In this document: piece after piece, positions 58,591-61,341 of the stretch
How positions within the stretch are numbered: the stretch's first letter is position 1
How the letters are laid out: each line of letters starts with the position of its first letter
NCBI RefSeq assembly: GCF_029227855.1
Contig: NZ_CP074356.1
Source of the DNA: Escherichia coli
Lineage (GTDB): Bacteria > Pseudomonadota > Gammaproteobacteria > Enterobacterales > Enterobacteriaceae
Length of the DNA: 64,000 nt
Strand: one strand, 5' to 3'
Position numbers and translations under genes: made by a program
Notes under the pieces: generated by a model
What the model saw: the letters and a program-made list of their open reading frames with translations, nothing else
What the model was told of the DNA's origin: nothing
The model's database searches: none

Positions 58591-58944
58591 TGGTTGCCTC
58601 CGGAGCAGTTTGCGGTGATGCCTTTCCCGGGAATGGATTGCCAGTGCGGGGACTGTGGAGCTTAATTCCGGTGTTGGTGGCCTTTCCGTTGATTTTATGC
58701 CAACAGCCCCCTGTGACTGACAGGCTGCCTCGTCATTCCATTCGTATCTCCAGTAACAGGGGGTTGTATTGTATTTTATTGTGCCGGTTCAGGTGTGCGT
58801 TTCCCGGCGCGTCTGCACCGGCTTAACCAAATTCAACAGGGATAAAATAGTGGTAAGCGTACAGCCTGAACCGTCTGGTCAGAATCTGACGAATTAGACA
58901 AAGTGGTGTCCACCAAATAAGTAGTGGGAACCAAAGTGTCAGAT

Positions 58945-59325
58945 ATGCAGAAAAATGTGACTCCCGGCAGGTGAAAAGGCTGCCCTAATTATCCTCCCGA
59001 ATTTAAACAGCAGCTCGTTGCTGCCTCCTGTGAACCCGGGATATCCATCTCAAAACTTGCTCTTGAAAATGGCATTAACGCCAATCTGTTGTTCAAATGG
59101 CGACAACAATGGCGCGAGGGAAAGCTGCTATTACCTTCTTCAGAGAGCCCCCAGCTACTTCCTGTGACTCCCGATGCAGCTGCCGAACAGCCAGAATCGC
59201 TCGCAGAGGACCCGGAAACCCTCAGTATCAGCTGTGAGGTAACGTTCCGGCACGGGACGCTCCGCTTCAATGGCAATGTCAGCGAAAAGCTCCTGACTCT
59301 GCTGATACAGGAACTGAAGCGATGA
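58945..59325 (+). pseudogene. IS66 tnpA-like ORF lacking an in-frame start
   Basis: Frame encoding ...PEFKQQLVAASCEPGISISKLALENGINANLLFKWRQQWREGKLL is preceded by an in-frame TGA just after ATGCAGAAAAATGTGACTCCCGGCAGG. Confidence 0.45.
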
Positions 59326-59669
59326 TCCCGTTACCTTCCGGGACCAAAATTTGGCTGGTTGCCGGTATCACCGATATGAGAAATGGCTTCAACGGCCTGG
59401 CTGCGAAAGTACAGACGGCGCTGAAAGACGATCCCATGTCCGGCCATGTTTTCATTTTCCGGGGCCGCAGCGGCAGTCAGGTTAAACTGCTGTGGTCCAC
59501 CGGTGACGGACTGTGCCTCCTGACCAAACGGCTGGAGCGTGGGCGCTTCGCCTGGCCGTCAGCCCGTGATGGCAAAGTGTTCCTTACGCAGGCGCAGCTG
59601 GCGATGCTGCTGGAAGGTATCGACTGGCGACAGCCCAAGCGGCTGCTGACCTCCCTGACCATGCTGTAA
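59322..59669 (+). CDS. tnpB: IS66 TnpB (Orf2)
   Basis: MIPLPSGTKIWLVAGITDMRNGFNGLAAKVQTALKDDPMSGHVFIFRGRSG... Confidence 0.85.
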   Translation: MIPLPSGTKIWLVAGITDMRNGFNGLAAKVQTALKDDPMSGHVFIFRGRSGSQVKLLWSTGDGLCLLTKRLERGRFAWPSARDGKVFLTQAQLAMLLEGIDWRQPKRLLTSLTML

Positions 59670-59718
59670 ATCTCTTTATCCTGGTTGTCACAGAATAAGC
59701 CCGGTAAAATACGGGCTT

Positions 59719-61103
59719 ATGAACGAAATCTCTTCTGACGACATCTTCCTGCTGAAACAGCGCCTGGCCGAACAGGAAGCGCTGATCCACGCCCTGCAGG
59801 AAAAGCTGAGCAACCGGGAGCGCGAAATAGACATCTGCAGGCGCAGCTGGATAAACTCCGCCGGATGAACTTCGGCAGTCGTTCCGAAAAAGTCTCCCGC
59901 CGTATCGCACAAATGGAAGCCGATCTGAACCGGCTTCAGAAAGAGAGCGATACGCTGACTGGTAGGGTGTATGACCCGGCAGTACAGCGTCCGTTGCGTC
60001 AGACCCGCACCCGTAAGCCGTTCCCTGAATCACTACCCCGTGACGAAAAGCGACTGTTGCCTGCGGCGCCGTGCTGCCCGAACTGCGGCGGTTCACTGAG
60101 CTATCTGGGCGAGGATACCGCCGAACAGCTGGAGTTGATGCGTAGCGCCTTCCGGGTTATCCGGACGGTACGGGAAAAACATGCCTGTACTCAGTGCGAT
60201 GCCATCGTGCAGGCACCTGCACCTTCGCGGCCCATCGAGCGGGGTATCGCCGGACCGGGGCTGCTGGCCCGCGTGCTGACCTCGAAGTATGCAGAGCACA
60301 CCCCGCTGTATTGCCAGTCAGAAATATACGGCCGGCAAGGTGTGGAGCTGAGCCGTTCACTGCTGTCGGGCTGGGTGGATGCATGCTGCCGGCTGCTGTC
60401 TCCGCTGGAAGAGGCGCTTCATGGCTATGTCATGACTGACGGCAAACTCCATGCCGATGATACCCCGGTCCAGGTACTGCTGCCGGGTAATAAGAAGACG
60501 AAGACCGGGCGGTTGTGGGCGTATGTTCGTGATGACCGCAATGCCGGGTCAGCGTTGGCACCTGCAGTGAGGTTCGCTTACAGCCCAGACAGAAAAGGCA
60601 TCCATCCGCAGACTCATCTTGCTTGCTTCAGCGGTGTGCTGCAAGCGGATGCGTACGCCGGGTTCAACGAGCTGTATCGCAATGGTGGGATAACGGAAGC
60701 TGCCTGCTGGGCTCATGCCCGCCGAAAGATCCACGATGTGCACGTCCGCATCCCGTCAGCACTGACGGAAGAAGCCCTGGAGCAGATCGGTCAGTTGTAC
60801 GCCATAGAGGCGGATATAAGGGGAATGCCGGCAGAGCAGCGGCTTGCTGAACGTCAGCGAAAAACGAAACCGCTGTTGAAATCCCTGGAAAGCTGGTTGC
60901 GTGAAAAGATGAAGACCCTGTTCTTCGGCTCTGGCCATGGTGGTGAGCGGGGAGCGCTACTGTACAGCCTGATCGGGACGTGCAAACTGAATGACGTGGA
61001 TCCAGAAAGCTACCTTCGCCATGTGCCTGGCGTCATAGCAGACTGGCCGGTCAACCGGGTCAGCGAACTGCTTCCGTGGCGCATAGCACTGCCAGCTGAA
61101 TAA
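59719..61103 (+). pseudogene. tnpC: IS66 transposase TnpC, frameshifted
   Basis: N-terminal frame from ATG 59719 (MNEISSDDIFLLKQRLAEQEALIHALQEKLSNRERE) stops at 59866; the body continues in another frame (59865-61103); the region before FFGSGHGGERGALLYSLIGTCKLNDVDPESY appears shortened. Confidence 0.8.
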
Positions 61104-61341
61104 CACATCCCCGTCAATACGGCCCTCGCTGTACGCTTACTTTTGTTCGGACTGCTTATGGCCTTTTTCCACTGGTGGCGCAGGAAAGTTAACCGGCTGC
61201 CACCATGGGATGACGTGTAAACCGTGCAGGCATGTTTTCACGTGGTGACGCTTTCATTGGGGGTCTACGCCGGAACCCCAATATTGTTCACATACATGAA
61301 TTTGAAAAACTAAGCGATACTGCTGTCCGTACCTTATAAAC

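Follow-up and report, generated by a model that had tools for sequence, protein, structure and literature searches.

The IS66-family element at positions 58853-61140 of the window, by which we mean the whole 64-kb stretch of Escherichia coli DNA analysed here, is very probably a chromosomally fixed and vertically inherited copy of the insertion sequence ISEc8 that has been decaying stepwise. An in-frame deletion within tnpC is shared with many other E. coli genomes, and the lineage of the window has in addition acquired a nonsense codon in tnpA and a frameshift in tnpC. The feature is ordinary and already known, and there is nothing new in kind about it. The label that fits it is that of an ISEc8 remnant in which tnpA and tnpC are pseudogenes, not that of an active transposon, and the locus offers a tidy example of the decay of an insertion sequence after fixation.

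Identity of the element and its lesions

The element was identified from its sequence as a copy of ISEc8, because it shows about 99.5% nucleotide identity to full-length copies named by RefSeq and encodes the full set of IS66 protein families. The reference copies, 2442 bp each, are carried by the E. coli plasmids p14EC007b (L004:301-2742) and pPK8275-145kb (L005:301-2742), and in both of them RefSeq names the transposase 'IS66-like element ISEc8 family transposase'; identity was measured against these RefSeq-annotated copies. In BLAST and MAFFT comparisons, identity to full-length ISEc8 was 99.5% over 58853-60921 and 99.1% over 60917-61140. In the MAFFT alignment with the two full-length copies, the first internal difference is located at 58961 and the last at 61027, and the flanks diverge up to 58852 and from 61141 onward. 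The right end of the element is therefore 61140. The initial annotation had described an IS66-family element at 58853-61150; its family assignment is borne out by the nucleotide identity and the protein families, and its left end stands, but its right end has to be moved inward by ten bases. The coordinates of all features are collected in Table 1.

Table 1 Features of the ISEc8 remnant and of its right flank (window positions)
Feature	Position	Strand	Description
Whole ISEc8 remnant	58853..61140	+	2288 bp; shorter than the 2442-bp full length by 153 bp and by 1 bp
IRL	58853..58874	+	GTAAGCGTACAGCCTGAACCGT; same as left end of the full-length copies
tnpA pseudogene	58945..59325	+	ATG at 58945; codon 10 is TGA (58972-58974); natural stop TGA at 59323-59325
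tnpB, intact	59322..59669	+	115 aa; protein identical to TnpB of the full-length copy L004
tnpC pseudogene	59719..61103	+	split by a 1-bp deletion; also carries the 153-bp in-frame deletion
Junction of the 153-bp in-frame deletion	60917..60921	+	CCTGT, 5-bp microhomology; TnpC residues 401-451 gone
IRR	61119..61140	+	same as right end of the full-length copies
DUF6404 3' remnant, outside the IS	61143..61220	+	25 codons plus stop; RefSeq 'DUF6404 family protein, missing N-terminus'

The two terminal inverted repeats, 22 nt each, are complementary at 18 of 22 positions (82%), and their outer 13 nt, GTAAGCGTACAGC, match perfectly. The ends of IS66-family elements begin with GTAA, and the repeats observed here have this start and a length within the family's range of about 20-30 bp. 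The genes tnpA, tnpB and tnpC follow one another on one strand with an overlap between the first two, and TnpC has the DDE, zinc-finger, leucine-zipper and C-terminal modules of the family. Of the family features tested, the element lacks only the 8-bp target-site duplication.

In tnpA, codon 10 has become TGA instead of CGA through a C>T transition at 58972 (MQKNVTPGR*KGCPNYPPEF...). The orthologue in E. coli 55989 and both full-length copies have a C at the equivalent position and an intact TnpA of 126 aa, and the intact protein matches Pfam HTH_Tnp_1 and the NCBIfam model of IS66 TnpA. Downstream of the nonsense codon, no start occurs in frame before a TTG at 59089. The tnpA frame had been described as lacking a start, and this is partly correct: the long open part after the TGA is without a proper start, but the ATG annotated by RefSeq in the 55989 orthologue is kept at 58945.

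The tnpB gene is intact, and TnpB is the only intact protein that the element still encodes. Its accession, WP_000612591.1, is common to all RefSeq loci examined, and it matches Pfam TnpB_IS66 (1.2e-38) and NCBIfam IS66_TnpB (120 bits, cut-off 50). Because the start of tnpB overlaps the stop of tnpA in an ATGA (59322-59325), the early stop in tnpA probably lowers the translation of tnpB in the window copy.

Two lesions were found in tnpC. One C has been lost after 59832 (GACCAT>GACAT), by which the frame is shifted and the gene is split into a 49-aa ORF (59719-59868) and a 412-aa ORF (59865-61103). The other lesion is the loss of 153 bp between CCTGT repeats, corresponding to positions 2066-2218 of full-length ISEc8. 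The 412-aa ORF still matches DDE_Tnp_IS66 (1.2e-76), as well as zf-IS66, LZ_Tnp_IS66 and DDE_Tnp_IS66_C, and TnpC of the window scores 351.6 bits against NCBIfam transpos_IS66 (cut-off 180). The match to the Pfam DDE_Tnp_IS66 profile covers positions 1-283 of 284 in full-length TnpC and ends at 222 of 284 in the window product.

Base-by-base comparison with the two full-length ISEc8 copies and with the 55989 orthologue showed that both tnpA and tnpC are broken. All five features that the initial annotation had described under multiple lesions are present in the sequence, with corrections of detail to the tnpA lesion and the right boundary. Its recognisable inverted termini were found as given in Table 1, the frameshift that it had placed near 59831 was exact, and the internal deletion that it had suspected in tnpC was seen directly in the alignment. 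The sequence of E. coli F9792 is identical over the element, and on this identical sequence RefSeq annotates tnpC as 'IS66 family transposase; frameshifted', adjoined by tnpB and a truncated 'transposase'.

Conservation of the deleted TnpC block

The deleted block comprises 51 codons of TnpC and includes the motif DNNIAE438NALR. To assess its conservation, we used an alignment of 109 sequences, namely ISEc8 TnpC and 108 matches of 490-600 aa, listed as 35-53% identical to ISEc8 TnpC, from an exhaustive search of 1.84 billion representative proteins. A word-indexed protein search gave close relatives only, with at least 62% identity among the matches listed, and was unsuited to a conservation test. 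Across all 109 sequences, gaps within residues 401-451 are absent or do not exceed 1%, and the length difference is therefore a deletion in the window, not an insertion in the reference copies.

The best-conserved acidic residues of the TnpC catalytic region in the 109 sequences are D247, D311, E364 and E438. The window copy retains D247 (100% conserved), D311 (99%) and E364 (97%), together with C330, H333, R335 and R336 (98-100%). The deletion has removed E438 (97%), which lies in D433-N434-N435-x-x-E438-x-x-x-R442, as well as A410, Y413 and N450 (95-97%). Judged by conservation and motif position, D247, D311 and E438 would form the DDE triad, with E438 as the putative catalytic glutamate; E364, equally conserved and retained, is the alternative candidate for that position. 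A sequence search of the PDB gave no match for a structure of an IS66-family TnpC. If E438 belongs to the DDE triad, its loss suggests that the 153-bp deletion alone had probably already made TnpC catalytically dead. A small addition to current annotation follows, in that the 461-aa open frame named 'IS66 family transposase' in many RefSeq genomes is without the near-invariant acidic motif and is probably inactive.

Flanks and distribution of the deletion form

The window is collinear, at 99.9% or higher, with the chromosome of E. coli F9792. It contains the btsT-yjiA-mdtM-uxu-fim region, followed by a genomic island that extends towards the fec operon, and no tRNA genes were found within the 64 kb. 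The genes to the left of the element encode an inovirus Gp2 family protein and two zinc-ribbon proteins. On the right, homology to a DUF6404 gene begins at the first base after the element. An intact DUF6404 gene, encoding 115 aa, is carried by a colicin-type plasmid, and its 3' end, together with the sequence that follows, matches 61141-61258 at 94% identity. The first 268 bp of this gene were not found anywhere in the window, and no complete E. coli genome covered at least 80% of the uninterrupted site, composed of the 5' part of the plasmid DUF6404 gene joined to the right flank.

The 8 bp outside the left end are AAATAGTG and those outside the right end are TTTTGTTC, and the 30-nt flanks have no common 6-mer, in agreement with the earlier observation that a target-site duplication is missing. 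The duplication expected for the IS66 family is 8 bp long (IS table, PMC3281130). Its loss is explained by the two flanks, which were non-contiguous before the insertion, with the truncated DUF6404 gene on one side only; for IS66 it is documented that copies which recombine with each other leave behind one element whose two flanking duplications do not match (PMC6778807). Such a duplication is a sign of an undisturbed insertion event and not of the ancestry of an element, and the two full-length reference copies of ISEc8 are likewise without matching flanks in the alignment.

Counts were taken over 5426 complete E. coli genomes. Of these, 4060 have some match to the element, at a median of 3 places, and 2218 (about 40%) have the junction of the 153-bp deletion, with a median of 1 copy and a maximum of 3; 2349 of the 2407 places with this junction are chromosomal. 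The right junction between the element and the DUF6404 remnant was counted in 2166 genomes, and that on the left in 1758. Since the deletion form is near single-copy and chromosomal and the counts of the deletion junction and the right junction are close to each other, it is one old locus that has been vertically inherited, and not a family of transposing copies. One plasmid-borne deletion copy was inspected, and it has the same DUF6404 fragment, the same esterase-like phytase-family gene and IS3/IS5 fragments, and lies among IS1 copies. Its chromosomal right flank and IS1 surroundings indicate passive capture without self-transposition.

The tnpA nonsense allele was found in 165 records and the tnpC frameshift allele in 152. 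Both alleles are real, and because they are much rarer than the deletion, they are recent and lineage-specific. The three nested lesions can thus serve as convenient lineage markers, the deletion for about 2200 genomes and the other two for some 150-165 records. The alleles of the window match a small set of strains that includes enterotoxigenic serotypes (F9792, O169:H41, O27:H7). With the two full-length copies as outgroup, the changes derived in the window lineage are one nonsense, one frameshift, two nonsynonymous and one synonymous; these five look like relaxed constraint, although they are too few to be tested formally. In WP8-S18, tnpC has independently lost a different single base.

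Most carriers of the deletion keep open frames for tnpA, tnpB and the shortened tnpC, and the cluster of 461-aa proteins (P0039) has 4664 member sequences. The open frames of the deletion form may be retained for some function; their divergence is very small.

Proposed history of the locus and comparison with known systems

The features described above are consistent with the following history. ISEc8 would have inserted into or beside a DUF6404 gene in the genomic island. A rearrangement at the left end, either loss of the DNA next to it or recombination with a second ISEc8 copy, may then have parted the original flanks and removed the matching 8-bp duplication. A slippage-type deletion between the CCTGT repeats would have followed, which cost the DDE domain of TnpC 51 codons, among them those for DNNxxE. 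In the sub-lineage of the window, the change of CGA to TGA in tnpA and the 1-bp deletion in tnpC would have come last. We infer this order of events, that at the left flank included; no ancestral empty site was found among the complete E. coli genomes.

An autonomous insertion sequence has complete ORFs for all of its proteins; here tnpA contains a stop, and tnpC is frameshifted and 51 codons short. Because neither full-length TnpA nor full-length TnpC can be made, the element is not autonomous, as the initial annotation had considered likely. For IS679, Han et al. reportedly found in 2001 that transposition requires the products of all three genes. The remaining role of the element would be passive, as 2.3 kb of homology for recombination with other ISEc8 copies.

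A non-autonomous element might still be mobilisable, if a full-length ISEc8 elsewhere supplied TnpA, TnpB and TnpC in trans. The IRL and IRR are the same as in full-length copies, ISEc8-related sequences are as common as the counts above indicate, the F9792 chromosome has a second ISEc8-like place, and a few genomes contain two or three copies of the deletion junction, all of which would fit such mobilisation. We nevertheless consider it unlikely, since many transposases prefer to act in cis and since the 2218 genomes that carry the deletion form have it essentially as a single copy, at one locus of the chromosome. The nearly equal counts of the deletion junction and the locus-specific right junction (2218 and 2166) point in the same direction, as does the inspected plasmid copy with its chromosomal flank among IS1 copies. 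The single-copy, single-locus distribution therefore argues against mobilisation in trans at an appreciable rate.

It is even less probable, and in our judgement very improbable, that the locus is a domesticated remnant in which selection maintains TnpB and/or a dead TnpC with its zinc-finger and leucine-zipper regions, for example to inhibit active ISEc8 copies in a trans-dominant manner. The intact tnpB, with a protein that is the same as in active-looking copies, the 461-aa TnpC frame that is open in 55989 and represented by thousands of sequences in its cluster, and the matches of the window 412-aa ORF to zf-IS66 and most of the DDE domain could be read in favour of domestication. Independent inactivating lesions have nevertheless arisen across lineages (the nonsense and frameshift alleles of the window, the frameshift of WP8-S18), the derived substitutions are mostly nonsynonymous, and translation of tnpB in the window should be weakened by the premature stop in tnpA; moreover, at a divergence of only about 0.3% for the locus, open frames are expected by chance. 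Truncated transposases inhibit some other elements, and we give just as little credence to the proposal that ISEc8-delta153 is an exapted remnant in which the dead TnpC (or the 412-aa product of the window) and/or TnpB dampens active ISEc8. The least credible reading, to which we attach almost no weight, is that the frames are truly intact and that the apparent lesions stem from sequencing errors or from a programmed frameshift, a device used by some IS families, IS1 and IS3 (PMC3281130). RefSeq itself marks tnpC as frameshifted. Sequencing or assembly error is ruled out by the independent records in which the frameshift (152) and nonsense (165) alleles recur, and a programmed frameshift is ruled out by full-length TnpC, which is encoded in a single continuous frame of 512 aa, and by GACCAT, which is not a slippery run. 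We therefore retain the reading of a fixed, vertically inherited ISEc8 copy in stepwise decay as the very probable one.

This decaying copy was compared with three known systems. Full-length ISEc8 occurs in E. coli O157:H7 and on many enterobacterial plasmids. The window copy shares with it 99.1-99.5% nucleotide identity, the same inverted repeats beginning GTAAGCG, the tnpA-tnpB-tnpC order, the ATGA overlap between tnpA and tnpB and an identical TnpB, and differs from it in being 154 bp shorter, in the tnpA nonsense codon and the tnpC frameshift, and in having no flanking 8-bp duplication. IS66 of Agrobacterium, the prototype of the family, likewise consists of tnpA, tnpB and tnpC, the last of which encodes the DDE transposase, but it is distant in sequence, and the copies described in PMC6778807 appear intact. 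Only 7 positions separate the ISEc8-delta153 locus of E. coli 55989 (NC_011748.1, 5058924-5061222) from the window copy. Like its counterparts in about 2200 other complete genomes, this locus carries the 153-bp deletion, lacks the target-site duplication and has the neighbours seen in the window, with zinc-ribbon genes on the left and the DUF6404 fragment and an esterase-like phytase-family gene on the right. Unlike the window copy, the locus of 55989 contains three open frames (TnpA of 126 aa, TnpB of 115 aa and TnpC of 461 aa); the window copy is set apart from it by the nonsense codon in tnpA and the frameshift in tnpC, and also by two missense substitutions and a silent one.

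Plasmid-like DNA beside the ISEc8 remnant

The 118 bp immediately right of the decayed ISEc8 copy (window 61141-61258) were found to be 94% identical to the 3' end of a DUF6404 gene and its downstream sequence in L006, a colicin-type plasmid locus. Judged from this similarity, the stretch is a piece of plasmid-like DNA inside the chromosome. In L006, where the DUF6404 gene is intact, it adjoins a colicin-like gene ('colicin Ia central receptor-binding domain-containing protein') and also a 'colicin E1 family microcin immunity protein' gene. An intact DUF6404 gene joined to the chromosomal flank of the window was found in no complete E. 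coli genome searched. Further out, short transposase fragments of the IS3 and IS5/IS1182 families were located between the esterase-like phytase-family gene and a ymgB/ariR-family gene; they add to the signs that old IS events have made this island a patchwork.

Features of the flanks and of the wider window
Feature	Position	Strand	Remark
IS1 copy	3980-4753		
IS1 copy	about 26570-27331		
Defence-type gene cluster	about 31800-42750		placed by collinearity with L007, a comparison sequence; includes a frameshifted SNF2-related gene and genes for a site-specific DNA methyltransferase (3.1 kb), a DEAD/DEAH helicase (3.4 kb) and a 'phosphorothioated DNA-binding restriction endonuclease'
'Inovirus Gp2 family protein' gene	about 56938-57507		upstream of both zinc-ribbon genes
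Small cysteine-rich 'zinc ribbon' protein gene 1	57761-58168	+	directly left of the IS
Small cysteine-rich 'zinc ribbon' protein gene 2	58157-58590	+	directly left of the IS
Imperfect hairpin	58703-58767		17-nt arms, 88% complementary; 31-nt loop
Esterase-like phytase-family gene	61342-62715	-	
IS3-family and IS5/IS1182-family transposase fragments	about 62980-63330		short

Left flank of the remnant

On the opposite side of the remnant, the two zinc-ribbon genes are neighbours that overlap slightly. Because both encoded proteins contain several CxxC pairs and share a PWFEH motif, the genes look like tandem paralogues. The 260-bp non-coding gap between these genes and the left end of the IS contains the hairpin, which might be a terminator or the leftover of something else.

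Fimbrial and defence-type genes

In the collinear strain F9792, the IS1 copy near 26.6-27.3 kb directly adjoins a fimD gene whose annotation lacks the N-terminus, and nanC lies on its other side. The type 1 fimbrial operon therefore seems to have lost its upstream portion, fimB to fimC, by a deletion beside this IS1. The defence-type system may be inactive, as suggested by the frameshift in its SNF2-related gene.

A plasmid-borne copy of the segment

The 114-kb plasmid pEC529_02 (NZ_AP039441.1, 58747-66804) has received a copy of a chromosomal segment. In it the ISEc8 deletion copy is represented by its 3' part, followed in the list of contents by the DUF6404 fragment, the gene of the esterase-like phytase family and the IS3/IS5 fragments; copies of IS1 flank the segment on both sides. 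The arrangement looks like a capture of the IS1 composite-transposon type.
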